Of a stretch of 64,000 nt of DNA, positions 4,151 through 30,838 are shown piece after piece. The notes below the pieces were generated by a model. It had not been told where the DNA came from and did not search any database. It saw only the letters and a list, made by a program, of their open reading frames with translations. Position 1 is the stretch's first letter, and each line of letters starts with the position of its first letter. The position numbers were made by a program, and so were the translations under genes. Origin of the DNA: Nitrospira sp. (GTDB taxonomy: Bacteria > Nitrospirota > Nitrospiria > Nitrospirales > Nitrospiraceae); contig JAFEBH010000025.1 in assembly GCA_018242765.1 (NCBI GenBank), positions 140,858 to 204,857 on the forward strand. The letters are read 5' to 3'.

Positions 4151-4579
4151 AGCCGTGCCCAGCAAATATCAACGCAACCAATAGGGAATCAATACGCCTG
4201 GCACAGAGGAACACTACCGCCACTCAAAAGCGGAACGCATACAGAAACTGCTCGAGACACTCACAACAGGTTGACTCTTTCGAATTTCTGAACCGAGCAT
4301 AGCAAGGCACATCGATTCAGATCCTCGATGTTGATGAAACGGAAGGACATATCGGATTCTTATAAGCCCACCTCTCACCTACTCTCATTGAGAGTAGCCC
4401 TCACTTTCCCACATGCTTCAGGTTGTCAAGTGACGGCAAGCTAGCACTCGACATGAAGGCCCAATCAGTACGTCCAAACGCTAAAGACGCGCAGGATGAA
4501 AGGGGTGTCGACAGCCTGCCCGTCTACCTATCAACCTCCCGGGCTTTTCTGACAATCACACAAAGACTCCCGACCCCTT

Positions 4580-4916: not shown

Positions 4917-5462
4917 TTATGCTGCTGCTCTCACTAGCCTGTCGAAAGGATCATGTATTCCAAGTTTTGTAAAGACACGATAGAAGCTATGGTTCCCGCC
5001 GGCGAGAAGAAGCCCATCAACACTATTCATTAGAATCTGATGCGCGTCGCTATACTTCGTGACCCATTCGGGCTTTTTAATTTCCTGTGGTAGCACCTCT
5101 AAAATATTTTGAAACATATGAAAATCAAGGCCCCAGGCCACCAATAGTCCCAAGCCAATCGCCACAGGCGTCTTCCAGGTTTTACCTTGGAGCCACGTAA
5201 AAACTTGTTCGGCCTTGAACACAAGAGTCAGTACTATCTCTAAGAACATGGACAGCACGAGATACTTCATCAAATGAGGACCTAGTTTATCCGCGCAGTC
5301 AATGGTTGTGCCGCACTTCGGCTGCTTCTGAAGGTCTTGAGGCTCTCCCTTTGTGGAACCAGAAGACGATTGGGCATACCCTGTCTCAGAGTTAACAAAG
5401 AACTGGAAGGTTCCTAGGCTAAGAAGAAGAATGAGCAGAAAGACACGAGCGAGTAATGACAT
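4917..5462 (-). CDS. Operon-terminal small membrane protein, unknown function
   Basis: 181 aa. Signal peptide/TM (LLARVFLLILLLSLGTF) plus two further hydrophobic helices. GAGGAGAA RBS. Only 28 nt downstream of the preceding eCIS gene. The stretch is visibly AT-richer. Confidence 0.6.
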   Translation of the reverse strand: MSLLARVFLLILLLSLGTFQFFVNSETGYAQSSSGSTKGEPQDLQKQPKCGTTIDCADKLGPHLMKYLVLSMFLEIVLTLVFKAEQVFTWLQGKTWKTPVAIGLGLLVAWGLDFHMFQNILEVLPQEIKKPEWVTKYSDAHQILMNSVDGLLLAGGNHSFYRVFTKLGIHDPFDRLVRAAA

Positions 5463-5490
5463 AAAGTTCTCCTCTTGCCAGAACTGGCTT

Positions 5491-7188
5491 TTAAGCGTGA
5501 TTGGTATCAGATTGGATCTCCGTACTTTCTTGAGATTGTTTCGTTGAGCCTATAAACGGCGACAGACACCACAGCATAAGGTTGTACAGACCGGAAAAGA
5601 ACAGTCCTAGAATTCCCCCGATGCCGATGTACGTAAACAATCCCTTGACGCCCTCTGCTGGCGGCAAGTGGTTTTCCCCCACAAACCACAGTAATCCCAG
5701 GATGGCTCCGCAAATCGTGAAGGCGATAAGGTCAAGACTCAATACGAACGGATTCTTCAACGGACGTCCTACCGGCTGCCCAAGGGGACTCACGACGCAC
5801 CGACAGTCGCGCTCGACAGACACACATCCTTCCTTGTCAGCGATCACATACGCGAGAGGAGCATAGCGATGATCGATGCCACGTGGCTCCCGCTCCTCAT
5901 ACATAACGTGCCCACTCGCGTCATTTGTTTTAGGCCATTCAATATCGCGCGTCGCGGCTCTGGCTGGGATCAACCAGTAATCTCCGCTTCGATACATGGC
6001 GGGGTGGCCATTGCTCTGACTGCGAAATGTAATCTTGAGATTATCTTCGAGTTCGACCTCTACCTCCTCGCGTACAACAATCGCGCCACTAGCAATCAGC
6101 CCATTGCGGTCGCCATGGTCCCATCGTCGTAACACCGCACGACACAACTGCAGTGACGCCTCGTTCTGTGCCAGTGGATGCGTGCTCTTGAGTGTCACAA
6201 TCGTTTCCATCCCCCCCAAATCAATTTTCTCGATTTGATACAATGGTCCAGGGGTCCCCCTGAGGACGTTAGATTCATCGACGATCTCGACCCAATCATC
6301 GATATTCAATCCGCCTCGGCTATCGCTCCCGAAATACTTCAAGGTCACAAGCAATTCTTTATTATTGTGTTTAGAACACATGGCAGATTGAATGGGAAAC
6401 GTCACGGAGCCATTTTCTCGTGACCACTTGAAGGTAGCACTCCCAGATGCCGCAGTGGCTCCCTGATGAATCTCGACACGATAGAGTTGATTCTCGCCAC
6501 CTTGGTACTGTGGAGTCGTCTCAGTGCTATGCCCCCCCACCGAGGCACGCAGTGTAACGCACCCCTTCTTCTGTAATTGTTCCTCCAGAAGCTGTTGGGC
6601 GTACTCGACGAACGCTTTTCGCTTCTCTTGGACTCTCTGAGGGTTCCGAGGCCAGAGTGCTTCTCCCTTCTCGAGGCGCTGTAATTCCTTCAGCCGCGAC
6701 TCAACTTCTCCGGTCACGTGGTCATCCAGCAGAAGCGTTTTCACTTGCCACACAATCTGTCCACGAGACGACGTGTCGGCTCCTCCGAGCGCCACTTCCC
6801 GGATGCCGTCGTCTTCGGCCGCCGTCACATGCCGTTCCCACACATCGAGATAGACCAAATACTTGCCATCCGTGAGTTGCTCAGCCGCTGGGTAGTGAGG
6901 CTGCTTGTCGTACGGTTGGTCTGTGGCGTTGGTGCACCCGATACCCTGGACGTAGTAACGCCCCTTCTTAATGTGAAAGCCTGTTTCGCCTTCCTTAATC
7001 TGGAAACTCGTCGCTGTCATGCCGCCATGCGGACCGATCACATCGGCCGTCAGCGAGCGGATGGACTCCAAGAAGATCGAGACTTGTTCATTCCAATCCG
7101 CATCAAGCTGAACACGCCCTTGCTGCATGAGAACGCGCGAGAACCGTTTTTCGTGGTCATACGTCAGACGAGAAAAATCACCTTTCAT
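5491..7188 (-). CDS. DUF6519-like eCIS-associated protein with a C-terminal two-helix membrane anchor
   Basis: 565 aa. The N-terminus MKGDFSRLTYDHEKRFSRVLMQQGRVQLDADWNEQ matches the DUF6519 signature as I recall it. The C-terminus has FVLSLDLIAFTICGAILGLLWFV and LFTYIGIGGILGLFFSGLYNLMLWCL. Confidence 0.7.
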   Translation of the reverse strand: MKGDFSRLTYDHEKRFSRVLMQQGRVQLDADWNEQVSIFLESIRSLTADVIGPHGGMTATSFQIKEGETGFHIKKGRYYVQGIGCTNATDQPYDKQPHYPAAEQLTDGKYLVYLDVWERHVTAAEDDGIREVALGGADTSSRGQIVWQVKTLLLDDHVTGEVESRLKELQRLEKGEALWPRNPQRVQEKRKAFVEYAQQLLEEQLQKKGCVTLRASVGGHSTETTPQYQGGENQLYRVEIHQGATAASGSATFKWSRENGSVTFPIQSAMCSKHNNKELLVTLKYFGSDSRGGLNIDDWVEIVDESNVLRGTPGPLYQIEKIDLGGMETIVTLKSTHPLAQNEASLQLCRAVLRRWDHGDRNGLIASGAIVVREEVEVELEDNLKITFRSQSNGHPAMYRSGDYWLIPARAATRDIEWPKTNDASGHVMYEEREPRGIDHRYAPLAYVIADKEGCVSVERDCRCVVSPLGQPVGRPLKNPFVLSLDLIAFTICGAILGLLWFVGENHLPPAEGVKGLFTYIGIGGILGLFFSGLYNLMLWCLSPFIGSTKQSQESTEIQSDTNHA

Positions 7189-7197
7189 GCTTCACTC

Positions 7198-15571: not shown

Positions 15572-15574
15572 GCG

Positions 15575-15937
15575 CTACACCTTTCGGATAAAATGGGCCG
15601 TCCGACGCTCATTCGTCCGGCGCACCACGTAATGAATCATAATAATGAGTCGGCCTTCCTGGTCGTTGCTCGTCACGTCCAACCGTTCAACCGCGATGAG
15701 ATCTCCGAGCCAGCGTTGTAAGCCGGCTTGAACGGCAAACTGCAGCGCAGCAGCGAGCTCGGAATTGTTCGGTGCAAAGACCATCTGCAACAGGCCGCTG
15801 CCGAAATCAGGGCGGTTGACGCGTTCACCGGGATTGGTGAACAGAAACTCTTCGATCATGTCGCGGATATGATCCGCTTCACCCGTTGTAGCCGTACGCC
15901 TCATCCGGTCGAAATGAAAGGGATAGTCGATATTCAT
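15575..15937 (-). CDS. GPW/gp25-like baseplate wedge protein
   Basis: 120 aa. HIRDMIEEFLFTNPGERVNRPDFGSGLLQMVFAPN is the gp25/GPW core motif. Confidence 0.9.
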   Translation of the reverse strand: MNIDYPFHFDRMRRTATTGEADHIRDMIEEFLFTNPGERVNRPDFGSGLLQMVFAPNNSELAAALQFAVQAGLQRWLGDLIAVERLDVTSNDQEGRLIIMIHYVVRRTNERRTAHFIRKV

Positions 15938-16257
15938 TAATTCCCCCTGACACGCATCTGCGTCACGACGATAGTGACACCAGTCCCATTCGGTGCACAG
16001 ACCGCCTGACTATCTTGCAGCAACACCGGAATTCCCCCTGCCTTCACACGTAATGCCGCCGTCACCCACTGGGCTGTGACACAGGGGACCGGTGAACCGC
16101 TGACATTAAATGGACATCCAGCAATCGTATGCGGTGCAGTCTGAGTCACCACCATCTGCCCACTGACCTTCACCCGAAGATTGGGGGCCGTCGCTTGGGC
16201 CTGTCCCCCATGCAAACAGAGCACTGTCGCCCCCATGTGCAGGAGATACCCTGGCAT
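15937..16257 (-). CDS. PAAR-like / DUF4280-like spike-tip protein
   Basis: 106 aa, Cys/Gly/Val-rich beta protein (GATVLCLHGG...AGCPFNV...PCVTAQW...AVCAPNG). Located directly after the spike gene and shares a start/stop nucleotide with it. Confidence 0.7.
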   Translation of the reverse strand: MPGYLLHMGATVLCLHGGQAQATAPNLRVKVSGQMVVTQTAPHTIAGCPFNVSGSPVPCVTAQWVTAALRVKAGGIPVLLQDSQAVCAPNGTGVTIVVTQMRVRGN

Positions 16258-17866: not shown

Positions 17867-17868
17867 AG

Positions 17869-18183
17869 CTAGATCGCCCCCGATTGGGGAAACGTAATCC
17901 GCAATCGACGACCAACCGTCCTCGTCAATTCGTCAGACCGCATGGCGTTATTCGCATCGCACAGGCGCCAGAATTGCTCGGGATCGCCGAGATACCGCGC
18001 CGTGATATTGTCGAGCCGCTCCCCTTGTGTCACGACATGTTCAGCCACAATCGGCGTATTGGGGCTGACGGCCGGCACAAATCGGCGGCGCAGGTAGGCG
18101 ATCTCCTTCCCTTCTGCCGGTTCGTACTTCGCGTTTTCGATACCGTGGTACCGACTGGTCGGAGGAAACATCGTGCACCTCAC
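17869..18183 (-). CDS. LysM/gpX-like small baseplate protein
   Basis: 104 aa. GERLDNITARYLGDPEQFWRLCDANN...LRITFP resembles the LysM-like tail protein X. The GTG start overlaps the upstream stop (GTGA). Confidence 0.6.
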   Translation of the reverse strand: MRCTMFPPTSRYHGIENAKYEPAEGKEIAYLRRRFVPAVSPNTPIVAEHVVTQGERLDNITARYLGDPEQFWRLCDANNAMRSDELTRTVGRRLRITFPQSGAI

Positions 18184-18836
18184 CCAAGCTTGATGGATGT
18201 CGCAAGATTCTGCGTACTCACGGCTACATTACTGGTCGCCATCACTTCCTTCGCGATCTGATGCACCATGAAGAGCGAGTACCCGGGGTTCGTCAGCTTC
18301 AAGTCGGCGTAGCTCAACACCGTCAGCGTCAAATCGACCTTCGCTCGAATTGGATTGAGCATCGGATCGTAGGCTTCTTCCGTGATACTGAAGCCAGTGA
18401 CCCGCACCGGCAGCACGCGCGTTGCGCCCCACACAAATAAGGTCAACGGAGCCTCCGGTGGAATGATTTCAATGTTGCCGGCTTGGGCCAGCGTTGAGTT
18501 GGCGATGACCGTTACGCTCTTCGGATACAGCAACATCTCCAGCGCCGACAGGGTCGGAGAGATCCCGGAGATCAGGGCCAGGGGATTGGCCTGCTCGAGT
18601 TGGTCGGTGGCATCTACTTCAATATTGAGTGTGATCGTCTCCTTAGGCGGACCCGTCAGCCGAAACGCTTCCGATCGGTCGCTCGTGTCGCCACCACCCG
18701 TTGACCGTGCCTCCAGTCGGCGTGTCATGGTATCCGGGTTGTATTGAAACACCACCACGCTGGCGAGCGGATTCATGGCATCCACGCCAACAATCGCGCC
18801 TTTGACTAATCGAGGAGAACCGGGGAAGGAACTCAT
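18180..18836 (-). CDS. Second tube-like protein (Afp5-type inner tube/tube initiator)
   Basis: ORF extends to 18884, but the likely start is MSSFPGSPRL at 18836. VVFQYNPDTMTRRLE...ITLNIEVDATD is the CIS tube-protein N-terminal motif. Confidence 0.7.
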   Translation of the reverse strand: MSSFPGSPRLVKGAIVGVDAMNPLASVVVFQYNPDTMTRRLEARSTGGGDTSDRSEAFRLTGPPKETITLNIEVDATDQLEQANPLALISGISPTLSALEMLLYPKSVTVIANSTLAQAGNIEIIPPEAPLTLFVWGATRVLPVRVTGFSITEEAYDPMLNPIRAKVDLTLTVLSYADLKLTNPGYSLFMVHQIAKEVMATSNVAVSTQNLATSIKLG

Positions 18837-18893
18837 AACTTTAGTCCTAATTGAATCAGAGCAGCACTCTATCCAAGACAGCAAAAACCGAAC

Positions 18894-20234
18894 TCATGGT
18901 GCGACGGGCACCCTAGCTGCCCGCTCAGCGATAAGTTGGTCAATCGTAAGCCGTCGCCCATCGCTTGTTCGCACAAATACCTCGCCACCGCGCCTTTCCT
19001 GTCCAGCACGGAGAAAAATATGAAACACTCGGTAGCCTTCTTGGCTCCTGAACGCGAACACATTTGTGCCATTGGGTCTAGTCTCTTCGAAATTGAATCG
19101 GATGGTCGGATCACCAATGACATTTCGGAGAAGCTCAGCTTCCACATCGAGACCAGCTCGATGTGCTCGATCAAACTCAGCCTGGCTGAAGTTCGTGCCA
19201 ATCCGTCGATCGTAGTTGGGCACCCTAAAACGCTCTGCCAGTAGATGGAGAAGGTTCAGCTGAAAGCTGATATCGTCAGATGAGAGTAAGTCGTCAAGGT
19301 CTAAGTAACCAGAGTCGAAGTTATCAATCAAAAGAGGCACGAATCTCCCACCATCCTGAACACGACCCGCACTTGTAATGAGCCGCAGGGGAACCACTTC
19401 TCCTCGATCTATGAAACCACGCAGATGGCAGTCAAAGGTCGTGAGCGCTGTCTCATCAACTACATCGTAGACAATCCGTCTCCCATCGAGCCGATACTGG
19501 ATGCCTGTAGAAATCGCATTGAGTCGGTCGACCAATTCCTGACGTCGATCGAAGGCAGAGGCTTCTCCTCTGCCTGGTGGTCTCACTTCAACTGTGCGCT
19601 GGATAGTCGGTGCGCCTGTTGCCTGCTGCACCACATGCGTCAACTCATGAGCAATTAACCGCTGTCCCTCGTTTGTCCCTGGAGCGAACCGCCCTGCACC
19701 AAACACAATGTTATGTCCGACGGCGTACGCACTAGCGTTTACGTCACGAGCTGATTGTGCAGCGGCTGCACCGGAATGCACCCGCACCTGGGAGAAGTCA
19801 TATCCAAAACGCTGCCCCATATCTTGCTGTAGAGCCGGTTTCAGCAACTGGCCTGTTGAGTTCAAAACTTCATGCACACTCGGCGGCACATCCCCTACCC
19901 CAATTACACCAGCGGTTGCTCGTCGTTGCACCAAGGGCTGAGTCCTGCCTCCGTTCTGTTGCCTAGTCACATCCGCAGGCGACATCCACATGACTTGCTC
20001 AGCTACACGATCGGCTTCTTGCTCAAACACATCGCCTGGCTCACTGATCGCCAGCTTGGTTTGCAGCAGCTTCCCGCCAACACCCAGTTTCTTCTTCTGA
20101 CATTCCGCACACTGCCCTCCACCCATGGTGTGTGTCCCGCAGACACATTTGCGTTGCAAAACACCGCGTGAGACTGGCGTGAAGGGCATGAAACTATTGC
20201 GCCTTGTCTGGTTGTGCGTTTTCTCACTCAACAT
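18894..20234 (-). CDS. DUF4157-led eCIS cargo protein 2 with an unassigned C-terminal domain
   Basis: 446 aa. N-terminal module: LQRKCVCGTHT..CAECQKKK..LAISEPGDVFEQEADRVAEQVM...FGYDFSQVRVHSG...AYAVGHNIVFG...HELTHVVQQ. About 235 aa follow with no motif I recognise. Confidence 0.8.
   Translation of the reverse strand: MLSEKTHNQTRRNSFMPFTPVSRGVLQRKCVCGTHTMGGGQCAECQKKKLGVGGKLLQTKLAISEPGDVFEQEADRVAEQVMWMSPADVTRQQNGGRTQPLVQRRATAGVIGVGDVPPSVHEVLNSTGQLLKPALQQDMGQRFGYDFSQVRVHSGAAAAQSARDVNASAYAVGHNIVFGAGRFAPGTNEGQRLIAHELTHVVQQATGAPTIQRTVEVRPPGRGEASAFDRRQELVDRLNAISTGIQYRLDGRRIVYDVVDETALTTFDCHLRGFIDRGEVVPLRLITSAGRVQDGGRFVPLLIDNFDSGYLDLDDLLSSDDISFQLNLLHLLAERFRVPNYDRRIGTNFSQAEFDRAHRAGLDVEAELLRNVIGDPTIRFNFEETRPNGTNVFAFRSQEGYRVFHIFLRAGQERRGGEVFVRTSDGRRLTIDQLIAERAARVPVAP
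19599..20162 (-). repeat. DUF4157 leader module, copy B (paralogous to 22135-22704)
   Basis: The protein blocks are near-identical between the two cargo genes. Nucleotide similarity is visible, for example ccacccatggtgtgtgtcccgcagacaca versus ccacccatggtgtgcgtgccacaggcaca. Confidence 0.7.
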
Positions 20235-20362
20235 TTCTATTCACTCAGCCCTATTGATCTCTCATGAAACCGTGACTCCTCTGCCACCACTCGGCAGAAC
20301 CTCTTGACTCTGGGAAGGTAGGCTGTCCCCTTTTCAATTCGTTCTGCTGACATCTAACCGCC

Positions 20363-20728
20363 TTAAGCCTGGTTTACAGTAGTTAACCACTTCTCAAAGT
20401 CCTGCAATGTCATAAGAACTTCTGGCTTCAGCCGGTAGTCGTCGTTGTCAAAATCGACAAAGCACTCTGCTGGCAAACCTGCGTATGCAGGACCACTTTG
20501 TGCTGCATAAGCTCTGAAACGCACACCGGTGTCTTGGTCGAGGATTGCATATGAGTAGTAGACATCACCTGCCGAGTCTGATGCGCCAAAACGTGCCATG
20601 AGCAGTGTGCCGAAAGCCTGCACATCAAACGCCTCATCGTCCGTTAGTGTCGGATTTGTCTCATATCGACTAGCGAGTTTGGCACCGCGCACCTCTTTTG
20701 CACCAAGCCGGACATAGCGCGATCGCAT
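20363..20728 (-). CDS. Small protein translationally coupled to cargo protein 1; candidate immunity/accessory protein
   Basis: 121 aa. Its ATG shares one nucleotide with the upstream TAA (TAATG at 20726-20730). No recognisable family. Confidence 0.6.
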   Translation of the reverse strand: MRSRYVRLGAKEVRGAKLASRYETNPTLTDDEAFDVQAFGTLLMARFGASDSAGDVYYSYAILDQDTGVRFRAYAAQSGPAYAGLPAECFVDFDNDDYRLKPEVLMTLQDFEKWLTTVNQA

Positions 20729-22803
20729 TAGTCACCCTCCGGTCGCTCTTCAGTGCTTCCAGTGGCTACAAAACGTCCAAGTGCTGGAATCAGCATCAGC
20801 AGTGCTGCGGACCCCGCACCCAGCAAGGCTTCATCACCAGGCACTGGATCGAACACCGCAATCAAAGCGAGAATTCCCAGAATGATTGCGCCCACCACCA
20901 ACAACGCAATTGCGATTGCCGCAAGTGCACGCACCAGGATTTCCCCGATTGTTAGCAACACTTCACCAATGAAACCTAGGGCTTGACCAATTGCTTCTAC
21001 CATCCGTGTCAACGTCGCGCTGAGTTCAGCTAGAATTGCAGTAGCAACACGTGCAGCAACCACTGTAACCACTACTGGAATCAGTCGCTGAGTTTGCTCA
21101 CGCAACAGCCGTCGAATCCTGTCAAGCAGATCAGACAATGCCACTGCAGGCACACCAACGCATAGCGCGACCAGCGCGTTCCGCACTAATTCAGTCAATA
21201 CGCTGCGCAGTTGGTTACGTAACTCAGAAATTAAGGTGTCTGAGACTAGCCTCACCAGGGTTGTTACGATTGAACGCACCTCTGCCCCAACGGCCTGGTC
21301 GAGCAGTTGTGCGATCTGCTCAGCGGTAGCTCGGCTCAACACCTGGTCGGCAACCGGCCCAAGATACGGTCGCAACATTTGTCGGATCTGTGTACCAAAG
21401 TGACGCTCGGCTAACCGAATCAAATCACCAAGACTCTGTCGTCGTAGTGTTGCCTCAAGTGGCCTCTGTATGTGATCACGAATGAATCCATCCAACACCT
21501 CCTGCGCCGGACCGCCAACCACGCGGTCAACATATCTTGCAGTCTCCTCTGCAGACACACCACAAGTGTAGGTATCTGAACCACCGCCAGTACACCAATA
21601 CCCAATAGCACCTGGTGCAACCGTCTTTGCTTTCAATGTACGTGTGCGGTCTCCAATAAAATCGCCGATTACGGTGGTATTAGGTAACACCCCGGTCAGC
21701 CTGGTAAATGATGGTCGCAGAGGGCCACGCAGGTAACCTCTCTGAAAATCGCGGTCATCATCGCTTGCTGTCCCACAGATACCGGTACCATACAACCGGT
21801 CTACCGACTGATCGGCACGACGAATATAGTGTTCCGATTCAAGTACACCTCGTGTCGGTGCTGAGCCTATTGGCTTGATCTCTCCAATTTCGTAGAGGAT
21901 CCCGGATCGACGCATTAAATCGGCATAACCTAAACTGGTATCAACACCCTGGCAACCTTGACTGTCAATGTTCCGCTTTGTCGCACGTGGAATCGGCACC
22001 TCGTTCAACATAGGTAGCAAGAAGGTCTGGATCTGGGTATGTGCTCGCTCCCCGGCACCCATAGGTCCATTGTCGTTCTCATCCTCCTCTGTCATTGAAG
22101 TCGCGCACCCACCTGCCCCGCGTGTAGTTGCTCGCTGCACTGAGTAGCTTGCATCTACACCCGACTGTTGAACGACATGAGTCAACTCATGTGCAAGCAA
22201 GCGTCGGCCCATGTTTGTTTCAGTCGAAAATTGACCTGTACCAAATACGATATTGTGACCCACCGTGTAGGCATGGGCGTTCACATGCCGCACCGATTGC
22301 TCGACAGTCCCACCGGAATGCACTCTCACATGACTAAAATCCTGACCAAATCTTGGCTCGAAGAAGGCACGTGTAGCTCCATCAAGTGGCTGCCCTGGTG
22401 ATTTCAAAACATCACTCACACTCGACGGAGCTTCTGCCAATCCTGTTGCACCGCCGACTGCTCGCCGTTGAACCAACGGCTGTGTCATTCCGCTCTTTTG
22501 CCGTTTACTCACATCCGCCGGCGACATGCGCATCACTTGCTCAGCGACACGATCTGCTTCCTGCTCATACACATCGCCAGGTTCACTGATCGCCAGTTTG
22601 GTTTGCAGTGGCCTACCCTCGACACCCAGTTTTTTCTTTTGACACTCCGCACACTGTTCTCCACCCATGGTGTGCGTGCCACAGGCACACTGGCGTTGAA
22701 GAAGACCAGTACAGCCTGACCGAGGAGCCTGATTCCTTCCAGCTTCAGCTTGTACGGCAGTCCGTTCCATTCCCACTCTTCCCTCAGTCTCGCGGCCCCT
22801 CAC
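20728..22803 (-). CDS. DUF4157-led eCIS cargo protein 1, multidomain with a hydrophobic C-terminus
   Basis: 691 aa. It has the same leader module as cargo 2, including HELTHVVQQ. The middle domain carries GERAHTQIQ...LGYADLMRRSGILYEIGEIKP. The C-terminal ~150 aa are very hydrophobic (ALVALCVGVPAVAL; LAAIAIALLVVGAIILGILALIAVF; LLGAGSAALLMLIPALG). Confidence 0.8.
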   Translation of the reverse strand: MRGRETEGRVGMERTAVQAEAGRNQAPRSGCTGLLQRQCACGTHTMGGEQCAECQKKKLGVEGRPLQTKLAISEPGDVYEQEADRVAEQVMRMSPADVSKRQKSGMTQPLVQRRAVGGATGLAEAPSSVSDVLKSPGQPLDGATRAFFEPRFGQDFSHVRVHSGGTVEQSVRHVNAHAYTVGHNIVFGTGQFSTETNMGRRLLAHELTHVVQQSGVDASYSVQRATTRGAGGCATSMTEEDENDNGPMGAGERAHTQIQTFLLPMLNEVPIPRATKRNIDSQGCQGVDTSLGYADLMRRSGILYEIGEIKPIGSAPTRGVLESEHYIRRADQSVDRLYGTGICGTASDDDRDFQRGYLRGPLRPSFTRLTGVLPNTTVIGDFIGDRTRTLKAKTVAPGAIGYWCTGGGSDTYTCGVSAEETARYVDRVVGGPAQEVLDGFIRDHIQRPLEATLRRQSLGDLIRLAERHFGTQIRQMLRPYLGPVADQVLSRATAEQIAQLLDQAVGAEVRSIVTTLVRLVSDTLISELRNQLRSVLTELVRNALVALCVGVPAVALSDLLDRIRRLLREQTQRLIPVVVTVVAARVATAILAELSATLTRMVEAIGQALGFIGEVLLTIGEILVRALAAIAIALLVVGAIILGILALIAVFDPVPGDEALLGAGSAALLMLIPALGRFVATGSTEERPEGD
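22135..22704 (-). repeat. DUF4157 leader module, copy A
   Basis: See the 19599-20162 entry. Confidence 0.7.
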
Positions 22804-22829
22804 TTACTCACTTTGCCTACAACTTCCTC

Positions 22830-23108
22830 TTACTGTTTCTTCGCTGAGTGACTGGTCCCAATTCCCTGATACACCGCTTGAGCAATCTGCCGTCCAAGCT
22901 GGACGGGGCTTGCACCCTCTGACATATTCATCACTGTGTGCGGCACAGAAGCACGGGCGCCTCCGGCCATGGTGTCCGGTCCAACGCCATTCACTTCAAT
23001 CAAGCGTGCCAATTCCTGCTCGACGGCCCCCTGCACGAGTGCCCGTTGGCTCCCTCGGAGAGGTAGGTCGTCCAGGATTAATCGCTCGATGTGCAATCGG
23101 ACGTTCAT
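22830..23108 (-). CDS. Small conserved-looking hypothetical protein between the ATPase and the cargo genes
   Basis: 92 aa (MNVRLHIERLILDDLPLRGSQ...). 4-nt overlap with the ATPase stop. Confidence 0.55.
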   Translation of the reverse strand: MNVRLHIERLILDDLPLRGSQRALVQGAVEQELARLIEVNGVGPDTMAGGARASVPHTVMNMSEGASPVQLGRQIAQAVYQGIGTSHSAKKQ

Positions 23109-25222
23109 GCCACCACTTCCGTTTCCTCATCCCATTGGAAATCGGCTTCGTAAATGGGTCGCTCCAGTTTGCGAAACTCCGCCCGAGCCGCCTCAAAGAT
23201 GAGCGGCATGGTCACGGGTGTACCGGCACCCGCTGCGAGAAACGCGGCGTTCATCGCAACATTGTTGATATTGCCACCATTCAGGTTGAGCTGTGCCAAC
23301 CGATCGAAGTCCAGTTGGGCCGTTTCTGTTTCTCGTGGAAAGACCCGTTCCCAGATGGCCTTTCGCTCTTGGATGCCGTGGGCACGGAACTCCACGACGA
23401 ACCGAATGCGGCGCATGAAGGCCTGGTCCAACGCACTTTTCCGATTTGTTGCCAGGATGGCCAACCCCCGATAGGCTTCGATACGCTGTAAGAGATAATT
23501 GATCTCGATGTTGGCATAGCGGTCGTGGCTGTCTTTCACGTCGCTCCGTTTGCCGAACAACGCGTCGGCCTCATCGAAAAAGAGGATCGCGCCGCCGTCC
23601 TCGGCGGCGTCGAACAACCGCCGGAGGTTTTTTTCCGTTTCTCCGATGTACTTACTGACCACCGCCGACAGGTCGATCCGAAAGAGACTCAATCGCAAGT
23701 CGTTCGCCAGCACTTCGGCTGCCATCGTCTTGCCGGTACCGCTCTCGCCGGCAAAGAGGGCATTGATGCTCAATCCGCGAGAGCGCTTCGCCGCAAAGCC
23801 CCAGTCGCTATAGACCCTGGTACGGTTCGCCACCTGTGCAGCCAGTTCATGTAGGAGCTTGAGCTCCGGTTCAGGCAACACAATGTCTTCCCAAGTCGCC
23901 TTTGGTTCGATCCGCTGCGCCAACAGCTCCAAACGTGGGCGGGTGTCCACAACACAAGCCTCCCAGAGCTGCTGGGGAATGGACTGTTGTCCGATGGCAG
24001 GAGATGACAGCGTCGTGCGCGCGATCTGATGGATCGTCGTGAGATTCAAATTAAACTGGCCGGCAAGTCTCGCCGCTGTACCGTTCTGCTGAGCCCCCAA
24101 AAGAGAATCCCACGCCTGATGTTGTTCGGATTTCGTCGGCTTCCTGATATCGAATGCGACTGAGGCACGGCCCGTTTCCATCCGACGATCCTGCGTATCA
24201 AGGAAAAAGATGCCGCTGCTCCGAGCTAAGAAGCGATGCAGCGCGGACGCATGGGTATCGCCTGTGGCCGTTTTCTCCATCTCATGGGCGTCCAGGTACA
24301 AGGCAAATGGCCAGAGAACCCCTTCACGCATGAGCAACCGCGTCAGCTGTTCCAGTTCGGCTGGTGGCGATGGGAGCAACTCGATTGGGAACCGATAGAG
24401 AGACAAGCGCAGTGCCGCTGCCGCATGACTCGCGACCAGTTGCTTGCTCGATGAATCGACACCCAGCAATTGCATGACCGGAACTGCCTGCAGCGACCAG
24501 GCCTCTCCTACCTGGCGAATCATGCTGTCCACTGTTGACCGTTGCGACGGTGGGAGATCTAGACCTCGATCTTCATACCGGAGTGGCAGTAGCAATGGCA
24601 CGAGTCGATCATCCAGATAGTTGAGCCCTTTGATGTAATTCACAATGCGCTCGTCGGCCCGCAGGGCGCTCGTCGTCAGCGGCTGTGCACCAGGTTGGTT
24701 GATTTCGAGCAGCCGCCAATATCTCAAGGGCCTCTCAGGCGACAGCACATCCCAGGCCGGCTCAGCAAACAGCGCCAACGCGAGCGCAAAGGTGGGATAG
24801 CGGCGCGCCGGATCATCCTGAGCCTGCGCACAGAGCAACGCCATTCTGGTATCAAACTCCATCGCCGCACAGAGGAGAAGCACTTCACTCTCAAACCTCG
24901 ACAAGCCCAAGTTACGGCGCAGCACAATCAACGCCGGTGGCTGGTCTACTGTTTCAAATGCCGCTAGTTCCTCAGCAGCTCGCGCCAGTTGCTTCTCACT
25001 GACACTGTTAGTTCCAACGGCAGGTTGAGCCTGTTTCGCGTCACGTCCTGATGAACGTCGAACACCTTTGTGCGGAGCCGAGCGAGGTTCTGGCTGTACC
25101 CGTGACGCTGCACCAGCTGACTGCTCGATAAACCAGGCCAGGCGGAACCGTAGCCATGCTAGTGCTTTCCTCAAATACTCATCATTCTGTTGCTGCCACG
25201 ATCTTGACTTCGAGGCTTTCAT
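23105..25222 (-). CDS. eCIS AAA+ ATPase (Afp15-like)
   Basis: Walker A is GESGTGKTMAAE and Walker B is ILFFDEADALFGKR, within a single C-terminal AAA module after an N-terminal region of about 450 aa. The likely start is the ATG at 25222, which overlaps the cap-gene stop (ATGA). The track ORF extends to 25273. Confidence 0.9.
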   Translation of the reverse strand: MKASKSRSWQQQNDEYLRKALAWLRFRLAWFIEQSAGAASRVQPEPRSAPHKGVRRSSGRDAKQAQPAVGTNSVSEKQLARAAEELAAFETVDQPPALIVLRRNLGLSRFESEVLLLCAAMEFDTRMALLCAQAQDDPARRYPTFALALALFAEPAWDVLSPERPLRYWRLLEINQPGAQPLTTSALRADERIVNYIKGLNYLDDRLVPLLLPLRYEDRGLDLPPSQRSTVDSMIRQVGEAWSLQAVPVMQLLGVDSSSKQLVASHAAAALRLSLYRFPIELLPSPPAELEQLTRLLMREGVLWPFALYLDAHEMEKTATGDTHASALHRFLARSSGIFFLDTQDRRMETGRASVAFDIRKPTKSEQHQAWDSLLGAQQNGTAARLAGQFNLNLTTIHQIARTTLSSPAIGQQSIPQQLWEACVVDTRPRLELLAQRIEPKATWEDIVLPEPELKLLHELAAQVANRTRVYSDWGFAAKRSRGLSINALFAGESGTGKTMAAEVLANDLRLSLFRIDLSAVVSKYIGETEKNLRRLFDAAEDGGAILFFDEADALFGKRSDVKDSHDRYANIEINYLLQRIEAYRGLAILATNRKSALDQAFMRRIRFVVEFRAHGIQERKAIWERVFPRETETAQLDFDRLAQLNLNGGNINNVAMNAAFLAAGAGTPVTMPLIFEAARAEFRKLERPIYEADFQWDEETEVVA

Positions 25223-26490
25223 TGTACGGTGACCTTCTTCGTCGTATCGAATTCCGGCGGCGTCTTGCTCCAATCGACCAGAAGGCTATCCACTCCATCC
25301 ACCCGTAGTCGGACGAAATAGATCCCAGGCACGATGTTCTTCAGGCGAAACTTCAAGGTATCCGTCTGTGCTGGGCGTGTTTCCGGATGCAGCTCTCGAT
25401 CGCCCAACAGGAGCGCCACACGCTGGGTCGCCTGTACCCTGGGACTCACTTGAACGGTTAATATCGCATCTCGCCTGACTGGCTTCGGAGTAACGTTCTC
25501 AATTTTTGGCGCAATAGACAGACTGAGGGCATTGGTCATCCGCTCATTCCCCGCTGCCGCCGGATCGATCGGTGTGATGTGGGCGGCCACGGTATAGAAC
25601 CCTGCCGGCAACTCGGTCGGCTTGTTCGGAACGGTCACCTTCAGCTCCTTGTCCGTTCCGTTCTTGGCCGGAATCTCCACAGTCTTCTTGAGCAACGGAT
25701 GCATCAGGTGCACTACCACCGAACTTTCACCCAAATGATGCCCCTTGATCAGGAGCTCATCTCCCAACAGTGCAGTGGGCTGTTGTTTCGGCAGTTCTGT
25801 CATATCGATCAATTTCTTACTCGGCTCTCGTGTCGGAACCGTAATCTCCGTCAGCGTTGGGAACGGCGTCGTCAAATCCGGCTGGACCACGACTCCCCGA
25901 TCATTTTTTCCGCGCAGCAACACCGGTAAGGGCGTCCTCGTCAGTCGTGTACTCTCGATCAGCACCACGGAGACTTGGTAGGCTGCCGATAGGCGGTAAT
26001 GGATCTGAAAGGTCGTCCAAAGCTTCGACATTTCTTCAAACAGCAGCGGCTGAAGGGTAATGCGAACACGCTCGACCTGGTCTGCCAGATCGCTGGCGGC
26101 CAAATCGCGGTCGGCCCGCACGGCATCTCTGATTTCGTCCGTCCCTAAGAGCGGATGGTCATGTAAAATGCGCATGGCCTCGCCGAGCAGGGCGTGACTT
26201 CTCGTCTCATCACGTTCATCGCCGCTGTACGCCGTCAGCAAGTAGTACAGTGTGAGCGGCAACGGGGGCTGGCCGGTTTCACCGGATTTCACTCGGCCCG
26301 GCATTTCCATATTGCGAAAGGCCGCATCCGGTAACGCCTGATAGAGAAAGAGATTGATCCGTTGTTTGTCGGCATTAATCCCTTCCGGCGCTTTGTCTAA
26401 TGGCCTGACCGTCACGTGTTCCACTCCACCTTTTTCCAGCAGTCGACGCAATGTCGCGGTCACCGAGGCAATCGCCAGTGAATTGCTCAT
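25219..26490 (-). CDS. DUF4255 (Pvc16/Afp16-like) tail terminator/cap with a long C-terminal extension
   Basis: 423 aa. The N-terminus MSNSLAIASVTATLRRLLEKG...INLFLYQALPDAAFRN is the DUF4255 signature. The C-terminal ~220 aa look like two beta-sandwich repeats. Confidence 0.8.
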   Translation of the reverse strand: MSNSLAIASVTATLRRLLEKGGVEHVTVRPLDKAPEGINADKQRINLFLYQALPDAAFRNMEMPGRVKSGETGQPPLPLTLYYLLTAYSGDERDETRSHALLGEAMRILHDHPLLGTDEIRDAVRADRDLAASDLADQVERVRITLQPLLFEEMSKLWTTFQIHYRLSAAYQVSVVLIESTRLTRTPLPVLLRGKNDRGVVVQPDLTTPFPTLTEITVPTREPSKKLIDMTELPKQQPTALLGDELLIKGHHLGESSVVVHLMHPLLKKTVEIPAKNGTDKELKVTVPNKPTELPAGFYTVAAHITPIDPAAAGNERMTNALSLSIAPKIENVTPKPVRRDAILTVQVSPRVQATQRVALLLGDRELHPETRPAQTDTLKFRLKNIVPGIYFVRLRVDGVDSLLVDWSKTPPEFDTTKKVTVQ

Positions 26491-27779: not shown

Positions 27780-28504
27780 CCCTGCACCATGTCCAGATAG
27801 CACTGGCGCCGCCAGGCACTCATCCTGAGGATGTCACCCTCGGCCCACCCGTACGCCGAGGCCAGAAGATGAACCTCACCCAACAACCGCTTTGCCCAGG
27901 CACCGATCTCACGCCACACAAACGATGCAATGTCGAAGAGCGCCTGCCATTGATATCCGCATGCGGCACAAGTCACCGCAAGCTCCACATCACCTTGAGG
28001 ATCGGCTTCTGCCATCCGTTCAATCACCGGTTCTGCAAGCGAACTCGGGAATGCCGTTGTCGTCTCGCCGCGATGCATGACTCGAATCAGACACCGTTCC
28101 AGTAAGAGCTGTTTGGCTGCACCTGGTTCGGGCTTGTGCACGACCATCATCAAGTCCTCACTCGTCGGCAGTCGGAACGTCACCTGGTAGTCGTCGACGT
28201 CACAGACAAACTCTTCTTGCGTCTCACTCTTCAGCGGCACTCGAATCTGATCGACCTCAAACACGAGATCAAGACTATCCCGGCATTGAGGACACACCAC
28301 CACTGTCTGCACGCATGATCCAAACAACTGTTCCCGCAACGCGAGTAAGAGTGCGTCACGACGGCCGATCGGCAGGCGGGCCAGTTCACCGACCGCCGTC
28401 TTCGGAAGCGCCTCAGCCAACAGACTCAGTGCTTGATTGACTGAGGACTGCCCCACACCACGTTCCCACACTCTCAACAGAGCACTCGCGGTGAGTACGT
28501 GCAT
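27776..28504 (-). CDS. Conserved eCIS protein with a CxxC...CxxC zinc ribbon; possible assembly chaperone
   Basis: 242 aa. CPQC and CAAC are spaced about 115 aa apart. It sits immediately downstream of the tube gene. Confidence 0.6.
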   Translation of the reverse strand: MHVLTASALLRVWERGVGQSSVNQALSLLAEALPKTAVGELARLPIGRRDALLLALREQLFGSCVQTVVVCPQCRDSLDLVFEVDQIRVPLKSETQEEFVCDVDDYQVTFRLPTSEDLMMVVHKPEPGAAKQLLLERCLIRVMHRGETTTAFPSSLAEPVIERMAEADPQGDVELAVTCAACGYQWQALFDIASFVWREIGAWAKRLLGEVHLLASAYGWAEGDILRMSAWRRQCYLDMVQG

Positions 28505-28510
28505 CGGCTG

Positions 28511-29038
28511 TTATGCTGCCGGTTCAGTAAAAGTCGGTTCCGTCGGCTCGGCTACCTCGTAATCTCGTTCCCAACCTTCGTTCTCCAGCTTGATGGTCTG
28601 GATAGCTACGGCATTGGCATTGGCATCGAGATCAGGTTGAGCCTGGAACTCCGAGACCCAGCAGCGATAGACCTTGTACGCAATCGCCAGTTGACCTGCC
28701 TCGTTGTACATCTCGATAATAATGTCCTTTCGGAAGTCCTTGAGCGAGACCTCCGCTCCCAATCCAGACCCGAAATTCCACACTTTGTTCGCCCATTTTT
28801 CGAACTCGGTATCGTGAGTCACCCCGCGCTCCAGCGTGATCGCTTCATACTTCGTACGGCCGGGGGACTTTCTTCCGGTCGATGGATCTCCACCTTCTCG
28901 GTGTTCCACGACTTCGGTGCTCCGCTTCAGCGACCCCACCTTGCTGATCCCGGCCACGTACTTCCCATCCCATTTCACTCGAAACTTAAAGTTCTTGTAG
29001 GGATCGAACCGCTGTGCATTCACGCTAAACTGCGCCAT
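28511..29038 (-). CDS. Major tail tube protein (Afp1 / T4 gp19-like)
   Basis: 175 aa. FKFRVKWDGKYVAGISKVGSLKRSTEVVEHREGGDPSTGRKSPGRTKYEAITLERGVTHD is the conserved phage tail tube region signature. Confidence 0.92.
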   Translation of the reverse strand: MAQFSVNAQRFDPYKNFKFRVKWDGKYVAGISKVGSLKRSTEVVEHREGGDPSTGRKSPGRTKYEAITLERGVTHDTEFEKWANKVWNFGSGLGAEVSLKDFRKDIIIEMYNEAGQLAIAYKVYRCWVSEFQAQPDLDANANAVAIQTIKLENEGWERDYEVAEPTEPTFTEPAA

Positions 29039-29062
29039 ACTTATCCCTCCTCACATCAATCG

Positions 29063-30838
29063 CTAGACTTCGATTTGTCCCGCCATCTGTTGCAACTTAA
29101 TAATGACAAACTCCGCCGGTTTGAGCGGTGCAAAGCCGACCACGATGTTCACAATACCGAGGTTGATATCGTTCTGCGTCGTGGTCTCCTTGTCGCATTT
29201 GACGAAATAGGCCTCACGCGGTGTCGTGCCTTGAAAGGCTCCCTGTCGAAACAAATTGTGCATAAAGGCCCCGATGTTTAGTCTGATCTGTGCCCACAGG
29301 GGCTCATCGTTCGGCTCAAAGACGACCCACTGCGTGCCTCGATAGAGACTCTCTTCAATAAAGAGCGCCGTGCGGCGGACGGGAACATACTTCCACTCAT
29401 CGGCGAGTTGATCGGCGCCACGCAGCGTGCGCGCCCCCCAAATCACTCGACCATTGATCGGGAATATGCGCAAACAATTGATCCCCAGCGGATTCAGCAT
29501 GCCGTTCTCATTATCATTAAGGGAAACGTTCAGACCCTGAATGCCGTTGATGGCTGCATCAAGTCCGGCAGGCGCTTTCCATACACCGCGTGCAGTATCA
29601 GTGCGTGCCATGACCCCGGCAATAATTCCGCACGGAACAAAGGTATCAATTTGCCCATCACGGAGCGGGTCGGCTTCAAGCACCCGTGGAAAGTACAAGG
29701 CAGCATTGCGGGCCATGGTGCCAGACAGTCCGAGCCCTCCCAGGCCCTTCTTGGCCTCAGCTGTCGCTGTATCTTTGTTCTTACTCCAACTTGCTGGAGA
29801 GTCGACAATCAGCATCGCCCGTCGTTCGGTGCAGTACGCCATGGCCACTTGATACACAATGGGAGGTACATCGTCTTCTCGTTTGTCCGGGGGGATACAG
29901 AGAAGGTTAAACAGATCCGCTTTGTCCAGTGCGAACATTCCGGTTTTGAGATCTTTTTTACCCTCATATTCCGCCTGCTTCAGATCACCGCCATCGGACC
30001 CCTTCATGTCTTCTTCAGCTTTTTTCAGTTCAGTTTCAGCCTTGGTAATGTCACCTGGTACCTGCGGCCTGGCATCTTTTGCTGCGATAAGTTTAATTTC
30101 GGCGCTTGTGGCTGCATCCGCCAACTCACTCTTGGCAGTTTCCTTCGCAGACGCTAAGGCCTTTTCTGCCGCATCGATCTTCGCTTGGTCCGGTGGGTTA
30201 GCACTGGTTGCCTTATTCAATTCGTCGTTCAGCTTTTTAAGCTTGTCTGATGTGTCTACCGCCTTCTTGACCTTGGGCAGTTTGTCACCTGTCAATTCCA
30301 CTAGACTTGATTCAGCCTTAAGCACTCTATCGATCCGCCGCGTGGTGTCAGCGACCGTCAGATTCAAGAACTTTTCACTACTATTCCCCAGCCGAACTGT
30401 AAGGTTGAATAGAGCATCGGTGGCGCTGAGCCCTAAACGTGTCCGCATCTCATCGGAGACTTCCACGTCTATCGTTGCCCGCAGCTTCTTACCCCATGTG
30501 CCAGGACTTTTTGCGACGAGAGCCAGATCATCTACTCCCAAGCTCGCCCTAGCATCGTCAGGTGCCTGCGGATCCTTATAGAGTCTGACAATGATCGCTT
30601 GACTACCGCCGTTCAGATAAAAATCTCGAACAGCGTAACTCATGGGATAGTTCACCCCCAACCCGCCAAACTGCCGTTCAAAGTCCCCGAAACTGTTTAT
30701 TGTCACCGGCTCGTTCGCAGGCCCCCAAATAGCCCGGCCCAAGAATGCTGTAATGGAAGTCGCAACTCCCGTAATCGTACGCACTCCGCTCGGGATTTCT
30801 TCGATGTACACTCCTGGATATGTCGGCGATGTCGGCAT
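29063..30838 (-). CDS. Contractile tail sheath protein
   Basis: 591 aa. The N-terminus PTYPGVYIEEIPSGVRTITGVATSITAFLG is the canonical sheath N-terminus. The conserved C-terminal half includes ADLFNLLCIPP...YFPR...WGARTL. GGAGGA RBS. Confidence 0.92.
   Translation of the reverse strand: MPTSPTYPGVYIEEIPSGVRTITGVATSITAFLGRAIWGPANEPVTINSFGDFERQFGGLGVNYPMSYAVRDFYLNGGSQAIIVRLYKDPQAPDDARASLGVDDLALVAKSPGTWGKKLRATIDVEVSDEMRTRLGLSATDALFNLTVRLGNSSEKFLNLTVADTTRRIDRVLKAESSLVELTGDKLPKVKKAVDTSDKLKKLNDELNKATSANPPDQAKIDAAEKALASAKETAKSELADAATSAEIKLIAAKDARPQVPGDITKAETELKKAEEDMKGSDGGDLKQAEYEGKKDLKTGMFALDKADLFNLLCIPPDKREDDVPPIVYQVAMAYCTERRAMLIVDSPASWSKNKDTATAEAKKGLGGLGLSGTMARNAALYFPRVLEADPLRDGQIDTFVPCGIIAGVMARTDTARGVWKAPAGLDAAINGIQGLNVSLNDNENGMLNPLGINCLRIFPINGRVIWGARTLRGADQLADEWKYVPVRRTALFIEESLYRGTQWVVFEPNDEPLWAQIRLNIGAFMHNLFRQGAFQGTTPREAYFVKCDKETTTQNDINLGIVNIVVGFAPLKPAEFVIIKLQQMAGQIEV

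Follow-up and report, generated by a model that had tools for sequence, protein, structure and literature searches.

The subject of this article is a gene cluster located on a 64,000-nucleotide stretch of contig JAFEBH010000025.1 from Nitrospira sp. (the whole stretch is hereafter called the window), which we assign with high confidence to the contractile injection systems (CIS) of the Afp/PVC-like superfamily, i.e., the so-called extracellular contractile injection systems (eCIS). The class as such is already known and widespread, and what is new here is a predicted transmembrane hairpin on the protein that occupies the tail fibre position, a trait of a Nitrospira clade that is tied to a holin-like protein and a wall hydrolase. 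Because the fibre-position protein ends in two predicted transmembrane helices, the machine is probably tethered to the membrane of the cell that makes it rather than released, and the label “extracellular” is doubtful for this locus. By analogy with the thylakoid-anchored contractile injection system (tCIS) of Anabaena, a membrane-tethered mode is a better-supported inference than an extracellular one.

Members of the genus Nitrospira oxidize nitrite and, in some lineages, perform complete ammonia oxidation; they inhabit soils, waters, and wastewater plants, and live in dense biofilms among competitors and partners. Our search of the literature found no injection system named for this genus. 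If the reading presented here is true, it proposes a CIS mode of action for a key nitrifier for the first time, marker genes alone cannot tell the mode of action of eCIS-class loci, and a transmembrane segment on the fibre-position protein becomes a signature with which thousands of catalogued “extracellular” systems could be re-sorted.

Identity of the gene cluster

The cluster consists of 21 open reading frames (ORFs) that form an unbroken series on the minus strand, from position 30838 to position 4917 of the window, with spacings of -55 to +128 nt and nine overlapping pairs, which confirms the single tight train with overlaps reported in a preliminary description of this DNA. The same description had listed the parts of a phage-tail-like particle, and these were followed up with Pfam matches divided into those above and those below the curated cut-off, with NCBIfam, PHROG, and PDB sequence searches alongside (Table 1). 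Sheath, gp25, spike, two gpJ-like proteins, DUF4255 cap, AAA+ ATPase, and the DUF4157 proteins were all recovered above the Pfam cut-off, and the LysM/gpX-like protein, the gpD-like hub, and the PAAR-like tip found matches as well, but weak ones or ones below it. Regarding the tube, its class was recognized correctly and its number was not, as three tube-fold proteins were found instead of two paralogs; the Phage_T4_gp19 and T4_baseplate matches passed the Pfam cut-off, and the CIS_tube match fell just short of it. The 707-aa protein taken for gpI-like gave no match to Tail_P2_I or to any other family at E <= 5 in Pfam, NCBIfam, or PHROGs. The term “complete” holds for the structural classes, but no tape-measure homologue was found at the locus, and the hydrolase that belongs to its end is only a stub.

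Among the ORFs scanned over the 64-kb window there are no capsid, portal, terminase, integrase, or repressor genes, and no families of the type VI secretion system (T6SS), namely TssJLM, the TssBC sheath pair, and ClpV, in agreement with what had been stated beforehand for capsid, portal, terminase, TssJLM, and ClpV. The sheath of the window is a single phage-type protein, unlike the TssBC pair of the T6SS. Placement in the superfamily is therefore based on the core tail genes, the AAA+ ATPase together with the Pvc16 cap, the two DUF4157 proteins, and this lack of capsid, terminase, TssJLM, and ClpV genes.

The fibre-position protein and its predicted hairpin

The penultimate gene of the cluster encodes a 565-aa protein that the preliminary description had left unclassified, and that proved to be a strong match to DUF6519, hence a fibre-class protein with a predicted transmembrane hairpin. 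DUF6519 is the same as eBAP5, the baseplate-anchor domain of eCIS tail fibres, which elsewhere precedes macroglobulin, lectin, or pectin-lyase modules, transmembrane segments not being mentioned (PMC12923769). In the protein of the window, the conserved fold extends to about residue 461 and is followed by a short linker and by two uncharged helices, FVLSLDLIAFTICGAILGLLWFV and LFTYIGIGGILGLFFSGLYNLMLWCLSPFI, of 23 and 30 aa, with no receptor-binding extension. The hairpin spans residues ~482-546 (nt 5551-5745), and basic residues lie just ahead of its first helix. The AlphaFold2 model (mean predicted local distance difference test score, pLDDT, of 80.6) likewise appends a helical hairpin, 485-504 and 513-546, past the last strand of the conserved fold. 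The predicted layout is thus that of a tCIS-like tether, i.e., a protein in the fibre position that combines a baseplate-binding N-domain with a C-terminal transmembrane segment.

Among the homologues inspected, the hairpin is a property of one clade. Both helices are present in all 16 of the DUF6519 clusters that are at least 56% identical to the window protein, and every cluster with an organism name belongs to Nitrospira. The next ~100 listed clusters do not exceed 44% identity, measure 430-500 aa in most cases, cover ~80-87% of the query, and stop before the hairpin; three of them have one borderline hydrophobic segment each, which is probably not a transmembrane helix. Moreover, about 60 metagenomic homologues at 34-42% identity all lack the helices, the inspection having covered the best 120 and the best 80 DUF6519 homologues. 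Within the clade, the hairpin helices are conserved about equally with the folded domain, and the 12-residue loop between them is variable. The genes located 3' of DUF6519 in distant loci are heterogeneous and have no common theme.

In Foldseek structure comparisons, the N-domain weakly resembles a phi812 baseplate protein, DUF4815 proteins of phages, and tail-fibre proteins. A sequence search of the PDB with the DUF6519 protein had no match at E <= 1, the chains of the tCIS entry 7B5H included, and no 7B5H chain was among the matches listed by Foldseek against its PDB library for either the DUF6519 or the 707-aa protein. The G+C content is 0.50 for the hairpin and 0.46 for the 181-aa gene that follows, against 0.555 for the cluster; these values were not used as a sign of foreign origin because hydrophobic coding alone lowers G+C.

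The terminal membrane protein and its hydrolase

The last gene of the train encodes a 181-aa protein that starts with a signal-like segment, which may be a cleavable signal peptide, and continues with a variable stretch of ~30 aa, two hydrophobic helices, and a conserved C-terminal domain; in the alignment, the two helices flank an invariant block, F82-P99. The protein has no family match in Pfam or PHROGs. Its close family consists of 10 clusters among 5.8 billion proteins, all the organism-named ones being from Nitrospira, and a profile search adds 144 more distant representatives, the gene contexts of which were mostly on contigs too short to inform. The family co-occurs exactly with the DUF6519 protein that bears the transmembrane hairpin, and its gene always comes after that of the latter.

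In relatives, the gene that follows the 181-aa family encodes a signal-less peptidoglycan hydrolase, and this hydrolase is of two unrelated types: an Rv2525c-like glycoside hydrolase with an SH3 domain (loci L165 and L085-L087) or an Amidase_2 protein (L170, L171, and L088-L090). In addition, one distant family member adjoins a Peptidase_M15_4 protein. Such a membrane protein family, combined with wall hydrolases that can be exchanged for one another, resembles a holin and its endolysin, and from these gene contexts the 181-aa protein probably acted as the holin-type partner of a signal-less peptidoglycan hydrolase. It had been described beforehand as a membrane-anchored distal protein, and it looks less like a structural part than like the partner of an endolysin that has since been lost. 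The alternative of an immunity protein for a hydrolase effector was rejected, the partner hydrolases of this one family being of two unrelated types. Clusters of Afp, MAC, and tailocins are known to contain lysis cassettes.

Judged by its sequence, the hydrolase gene has decayed in the window species, leaving a stub that is the truncated partner of the 181-aa protein. When the intact 289-aa hydrolase of L165 was compared with the window by tblastn, residues 1-83 only were aligned, with 66% identity. All six same-species contigs sampled carry an Rv2525c_GlyHyd-like stub of 74 aa beside an otherwise intact cluster, and in each of the six it is followed by a FitA-like ribbon-helix-helix antitoxin and a PIN toxin (3459-4099, minus strand).

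Lineage and distribution

In the scheme of Chen et al. 2019 (PMC6899500), two copies of afp11 occur in subtypes IIa and IIc, all three of IIa, IIb, and IIc have a split afp8, IIb alone lacks afp10, and the tape measure afp14 is generally absent from lineage II, for which reason its absence here is normal. The window has two afp11 genes, separate hub and spike ORFs in place of one afp8, and a PAAR-like afp10, the hub and PAAR calls being weak. Together with the missing tape-measure homologue, this gene content fits lineage II, subtype IIa or IIc, and does not fit the Afp/PVC type; the genes in the afp12/13 positions lean toward IIa over IIc. Subtype IId is ruled out by the two J paralogues, the split spike, and the DUF6519 gene.

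Relatives of the sheath number more than 516 in a scan of one genome per species, and the best 80 of them (54-78% identical) come from Proteobacteria, Nitrospirota, Verrucomicrobiota, Acidobacteriota, Gemmatimonadota, Chloroflexota, Cyanobacteria, and a methanogen. The order sheath, tube, initiator, variable protein, cap, ATPase, 92-aa protein, DUF4157 protein is kept in 80 species genomes from many phyla. A metagenome scan with DUF6519 gave 321 relatives, and the order hub, spike, PAAR, gp25, J1, J2, 707-aa protein, DUF6519 is kept in about 40 long metagenome loci. In the viral database IMG/VR, a related sheath turned up in only 4 short fragments, and DUF6519 in none. Conserved cellular loci and near-absence from IMG/VR point to a widespread cellular system and not to a prophage tail.

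A related locus also exists in Candidatus Nitrospira defluvii (FP929003, 2153061-2174656; locus L051), with a sheath 57% and a tube 91% identical to those of the window and with the same gene order. The genus table of Geller et al. 2021 gives eCIS in 0 of 9 Nitrospira genomes, from which it follows that the survey either missed such loci or left this genome out.

Comparison with characterized systems

The only characterized system of subtype IIa is the CIS of Halogeometricum borinquense, the “archaeal T6SS” (PMC11566945). It shares several features with the locus in the window: two structural subclusters are parted by a cargo region, DUF4157 proteins are accompanied by downstream partner genes, cis11 is duplicated, the spike is split, the tape measure is lacking, the sheaths are related (9ezm, Cis2, E 1e-67), and a membrane-attached mode is proposed for both. 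The haloarchaeal system differs in being archaeal and plasmid-borne, the host of the window being a diderm bacterium, and in its proposed anchor, which is a separate protein with six transmembrane helices, Hbor_38620, encoded upstream; in the window the transmembrane segment is fused to DUF6519.

The closest parallel for the tether itself is Cis13 of the Anabaena tCIS, whose N-terminal domain attaches to the baseplate and whose C-terminal transmembrane helix enters the thylakoid membrane; when this helix is deleted, the particles come free (PMC8894136). This system (PDB 7B5H), in which the particle is held at an internal face of a membrane, has the same tethering architecture at the fibre position as is predicted here from the genes. 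Its action is proposed to involve loss of the cell wall, which gives ghost cells. The tCIS differs in having one helix and not a two-helix hairpin, in a more distant sheath (E 5e-37), and in its target membrane: thylakoids are absent in Nitrospira, so that the cytoplasmic membrane would take their place.

Among solved structures, the best match is CIS-Sc from Streptomyces coelicolor, a IId system (PMC12237407; 8BKY/9GTP). The sheath matches that of 8bky with E 2e-73, ahead of the haloarchaeal Cis2 (251 bits for IId and 232 for IIa), and copy 1 of Baseplate_J matches the Baseplate_J chain of 9gtp, an entry that shares the 8bky sheath sequence, with E 2e-15. Both systems have a simple Cis16-type cap, no tape measure, and a membrane protein encoded past the baseplate genes. 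However, CIS-Sc carries a single cis11, its cis8 is contiguous, a fibre-class gene is lacking, and its membrane protein CisA is bitopic and is not fused to a baseplate component. In the window, by contrast, there are two J paralogues, the spike is split, and both a DUF6519 gene and a beta-helix baseplate protein are present.

With Afp and PVC (subtype Ia) the window shares sheath, tube, gp25, Baseplate_J, spike, Afp15-type ATPase, and Afp16-type cap. These systems differ in their three sheath paralogues, in Afp12, in the adenovirus-type fibre Afp13, in the tape measure Afp14, in toxins located at the 3' end, and in another gene order. Their sheaths (E 1e-40 to 1e-43) are among the farther PDB relatives of the window sheath, as are those of tCIS and AlgoCIS.

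Proposed mode of action and competing explanations

In the mechanism that we propose, the particle would assemble in the cytoplasm, and the ATPase would load both DUF4157 effectors via their common N-terminal sequence. The particle would then be held baseplate-first at the cytoplasmic membrane of the producer, with the DUF6519 N-domain bound to the baseplate and with DUF6519 trimers anchored through their C-terminal hairpins, which would stand in for the receptor-binding part. Contraction would drive the spike outward through the membrane, as in a tCIS or a T6SS, and not from a free particle. More speculatively, the holin-like protein and the hydrolase may originally have breached or removed the wall, or lysed the producer, perhaps yielding wall-less cells like the ghost cells of the tCIS. 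We hold this explanation as a whole, i.e., a lineage II CIS of Nitrospira that includes a membrane tether, with moderate confidence.

The anchoring routes known so far are TssJLM of the T6SS, Cis13 of the tCIS, the haloarchaeal protein with six transmembrane helices, and CisA of Streptomyces. A further, convergent route, which we put forward tentatively, would be that a Nitrospira clade independently turned a lineage II system into a membrane-tethered one by fusing the hairpin to eBAP5/DUF6519, with a membrane protein specific to the clade and a wall enzyme at its side; the window species would later have lost the wall-degrading enzyme and kept the machine.

Several points weigh against the proposed explanation. 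Membrane insertion and topology of the DUF6519 protein are predictions from hydrophobicity and AlphaFold2 alone, and as it was the best 120 and 80 homologues that were inspected, other clades with transmembrane segments may exist. The tCIS parts Cis12, Cis13, and Cis19 have no sequence match to the DUF6519 or the 707-aa protein, so that the tether would be a convergence, an analogy of architecture and not a homology. The subtype was assigned by gene content and not by a tree. To cross the periplasm and the outer membrane of a diderm cell, no T6SS-like trans-envelope complex was found in the window. Finally, a holin with an endolysin is a classical release device and DUF6519 is a marker of eCIS fibres, and the same data can thus be read as an eCIS released by lysis.

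This last point describes the strongest competitor, a classical extracellular CIS that is set free by holin and endolysin, binds its targets via the DUF6519 fibre, and injects two DUF4157 toxins. The eCIS marker families are all present, the description of eBAP5 as a tail-fibre anchor domain agrees with such a function, sister lineages have a small membrane protein with a signal-less hydrolase at the 3' end of the cluster, lysis cassettes are known for Afp, MAC, and tailocins, and the membrane complex of a T6SS was not found in the window. Yet the fibre has no receptor-binding extension and ends in two predicted transmembrane helices, many of which would lie exposed on a free particle. Truncation of the hydrolase was seen in each of the six contigs of the species, beside an otherwise intact cluster, and neither of the two closest characterized relatives is a released free particle, the Streptomyces one being cytoplasmic and the haloarchaeal one membrane-attached. 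We therefore consider release by lysis unlikely, although it is the alternative to be taken most seriously. As for the name eCIS given to the locus in the preliminary description, membership in the superfamily stands with the cap, the ATPase, the DUF4157 proteins, and the absence of head and replication genes, and it is the extracellular mode that the hairpin and the non-released closest relatives speak against.

A CIS that stays in the cytoplasm and acts on its own producer in cell death or stress, in the style of Streptomyces or of Chloroflexota/Deinococcota, with the 181-aa protein bringing particles to the membrane in a role like that of CisA, is improbable. It would agree with the Streptomyces CIS being the best solved match of sheath and Baseplate_J, with the lack of a tape measure as in CIS-Sc, and with the 181-aa protein being most strongly conserved in the short loop that joins its transmembrane helices. 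The two afp11 genes, the split afp8, and the fibre-class gene contradict a IId system, however; the association of the 181-aa family with two unrelated hydrolases points to a holin-like and not to an adaptor role, and the candidate partner ORF after cargo A recalls antagonistic systems.

A defective prophage tail module or an R-type tailocin can be dismissed: the proteins are homologues of phage tails, and a tRNA-Gly with a duplicated 27-nt 3' end lies 1.6 kb beyond the cluster with a toxin-antitoxin pair next to it, but the AAA+ ATPase, the Pvc16 cap, and DUF4157 are specific to eCIS and absent from tailocins, the 64 kb contain no gene for a head protein, terminase, integrase, or repressor, the 4 sheath fragments and 0 DUF6519 proteins of IMG/VR stand against >516 and 321 in cellular collections, and the tRNA repeat spans ~144 nt and does not flank the cluster.

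Structural parts

The features of the cluster and of its immediate borders are collected in Table 1.

Table 1. Features of the injection system locus, in the direction of transcription (positions are those of the window)
Feature	Position	Strand	Basis or remark
LuxR/GerE-type helix-turn-helix regulator (candidate, non-structural)	31471..32151	-	Pfam GerE E 2e-16
Small ORF between regulator and sheath	30908..31342 (called as 115 aa, 30908-31255)	-	no family match
Contractile sheath, 591 aa	29063..30838	-	Pfam Phage_sheath_1C and Phage_sheath_1
Inner tube protein, 175 aa	28511..29038	-	Phage_T4_gp19 E 6e-47
Tube-fold, tube-initiator-like protein, 242 aa	27776..28504	-	Pfam T4_baseplate E 8e-16; PHROG “baseplate hub” E 1e-9
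Ser/Pro/Gln-rich low-complexity protein, 430-438 aa	26487..27803	-	between tube initiator and cap; no family or PDB match
Tail terminator/cap, Afp16/Pvc16 type	25219..26490	-	Pvc16_N/DUF4255 E 6e-47
Afp15-type AAA+ ATPase with N-terminal winged helix	23105..25273	-	Pfam AAA E 3e-26, WHD E 7e-24
92-aa protein	22830..23108	-	overlaps end of ATPase gene; no family match
Cargo A, DUF4157 (HExxH) protein	20728..22803	-	eCIS_core E 2e-30
121-aa ORF	20363..20728	-	overlaps cargo A stop codon by 1 nt; no family match
Cargo B, DUF4157 protein	18894..20234	-	eCIS_core E 4e-30
Second tube-initiator-like protein (CIS_tube)	18180..18884	-	CIS_tube E 6e-6, 26.6 bits (cut-off 27)
Small Tail-X/LysM-like baseplate protein	17869..18183	-	Phage_tail_X E 0.007, below cut-off
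gp27/gpD-like baseplate hub, 371 aa	16751..17866	-	NCBIfam VgrG_rel E 4e-5, PHROG tail E 2e-7, both weak
gp5/gpV-type spike, oligonucleotide-binding (OB) fold, 165 aa	16257..16754	-	Phage_base_V E 2e-23
PAAR-like spike tip	15937..16257	-	DUF4280 E 1e-4, 22.9 bits (cut-off 26.3)
gp25-type sheath initiator/wedge protein	15575..15937	-	GPW_gp25 E 1e-18
Baseplate_J wedge copy 1, Afp11/Cis11a-like, 1007 aa	12548..15571	-	TIGR02243 E 2e-101
Baseplate_J wedge copy 2, 1077 aa	9318..12551	-	TIGR02243 E 2e-74
707-aa baseplate-periphery protein, beta-helix	7198..9321	-	adaptor position before fibre gene
DUF6519/eBAP5 fibre-class protein, 565 aa	5491..7188	-	DUF6519 E 9e-80
181-aa inner-membrane protein	4917..5462	-	hydrophobic segments: signal-like and two transmembrane helices; holin-like or membrane adaptor
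Rv2525c-like glycoside hydrolase remnant (first ~83 of 289 aa)	4517..4855	-	tblastn with intact L165 homologue

The inner tube protein is 79-93% identical over 80 genomes, the CIS_tube protein 47-67% among relatives, and the PAAR-like tip 35-73% in about 25 loci. The two Baseplate_J copies are 27% identical to each other across the J domain (E 1e-21). The Tail-X/LysM-like protein has PHROG matches of the baseplate hub and endolysin-LysM types. The 371-aa hub had no match in the Pfam search; its position is conserved in related loci, and one member of its cluster bears the NCBI name “phage late control D family protein”. The cap gave no usable match in the PDB sequence search. Family scans with the 438-aa, 92-aa, and 121-aa ORFs and with both cargo C-terminal domains found nothing in Pfam at E <= 5, and a subset of them was likewise without a match in NCBIfam and PHROGs. 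The AAA+ ATPase is the probable cargo loader, a role taken by analogy from Alg15 of AlgoCIS (bioRxiv 10.64898/2026.05.27.728243).

Regarding the sheath gene, 924 nt of the window (29663-30586) are replaced by an unalignable segment of 747 nt in the same-species contig L083 (8630-9376), with 98.4% identity between the two on either side of the gene. The ends of the two sheaths (591 and 532 aa) are 88% and 91% identical, and residues 85-392 only 46%. The variable middle of the sheath, presumably its outer domain, is thus swapped within the gene between close strains.

Cargo proteins

Cargos A and B are 69% identical over the first ~205 aa only, a common module that joins an N-terminal region to DUF4157, in which the motif HELTHVVQ is found, and their C-terminal parts are unrelated. 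The part specific to cargo A has about five strongly hydrophobic helices (segments at 538-676), and that of cargo B is a different domain of ~240 aa; neither has a match in Pfam (E <= 5), in the PDB, or among known toxin families. The similarity of the two proteins begins upstream of the publicly called starts (646 and 410 aa), and a CxC…CxxC motif falls within it, so that translation may in truth begin at the starts of the longer ORFs (691 and 446 aa).

This layout is that of the AlgoCIS effectors Cgo1 and Cgo2 (PMC8894135), which have an N-terminal loading region, DUF4157, and then a variable C-terminal domain, and which, as two effectors of one system, share their N-terminal part as cargos A and B do. 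Loading of Cgo1 and Cgo2 depends on the AAA+ protein, and the signal for it resides in their N-terminal region (bioRxiv 10.64898/2026.05.27.728243). The hydrophobic helices of cargo A recall Tme of Streptomyces (PMC11126660), in which DUF4157 is combined with transmembrane helices. Unlike those of AlgoCIS and Tme, the C-terminal domains in the window match no known toxin family, and both loading and toxicity are predicted.

The 121-aa ORF next to cargo A, found in same-species contigs only among the related loci compared, is a candidate immunity protein or chaperone of this cargo. Pairs of a DUF4157 toxin and a downstream partner have been demonstrated in H. borinquense (PMC11566945).

Conserved families without an assigned role

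The locus points to two big families, conserved across this lineage, to which no role has been assigned. The first is that of the 707-aa protein, which has at least 5,788 homologues that are ~48% identical across phyla, none of them annotated by Pfam over this part; all members are named “hypothetical protein”. Its gene is always located between J2 and DUF6519, where eBAP5 systems are reported to have a Tail_P2_I adaptor. The PDB sequence search gave no match at E <= 1. In the AlphaFold2 model, of middling quality (pLDDT 63.7), a right-handed beta-helix is predicted at ~365-590, and Foldseek relates it to PL6/pectate lyases, with probabilities up to 1.0 and E 1.5e-3, and to phage tailspikes.

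The second family is that of the 92-aa protein encoded after the ATPase, which occupies this place in 43 of 84 related loci, drawn from many phyla. A further protein, the low-complexity one, varies in length over 80 related loci, and only its last ~45 aa (~10% of the query), …VQVTIGRVEVRAVPPP…SLDDYLKRRGG, are conserved. It may replace the missing tape measure as a length factor or help in the assembly of the cap.

Surroundings of the cluster

The flanking genes are ordinary cellular and housekeeping genes. One flank has the LuxR/GerE regulator and genes for tyrosyl-tRNA synthetase (TyrRS), lipoamide dehydrogenase (Lpd), GcvH, NDK, P450, PFK, an OmpA-family protein, and an Lhr helicase; the other has the VapBC-type pair, a tRNA-Gly, and a binding protein controlled by a cobalamin riboswitch. 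Proteins with 90% identity or more to those of the window bear the name Nitrospira sp. in NCBI records, and the same locus recurs in several metagenome assemblies. Scans for promoters and terminators at both ends of the cluster gave results no better than those for shuffled sequence.

GerE regulators are known as eCIS neighbours (PMC8213781), and the one in the window is kept upstream of the sheath in a Nitrospiraceae metagenome-assembled genome (L009), with 46% identity. The small ORF between regulator and sheath (30908-31255) is a gene call in four metagenome contigs, is 56% identical in L009, and resembles a degenerate receiver domain.

On the other flank, a tRNA-Gly(CCC) lies at 3219-3293 (minus strand), 1.6 kb beyond the cluster. 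Its 3' end takes part in a perfect 27-nt direct repeat (3046-3072 and 3217-3243, 171 nt apart) that looks like a leftover attachment site. An island flanked by the tRNA was considered and rejected, as the repeat brackets only ~144 nt on the far side of the tRNA and not the injection system cluster. Further out, a cobalamin riboswitch at 2061-2278 (minus strand, 79.7 bits) is located directly upstream of the gene for the periplasmic binding protein (972-2042, minus strand), and in related contigs this gene is followed by FecCD and ABC transporter genes, which indicates a B12-regulated uptake operon.

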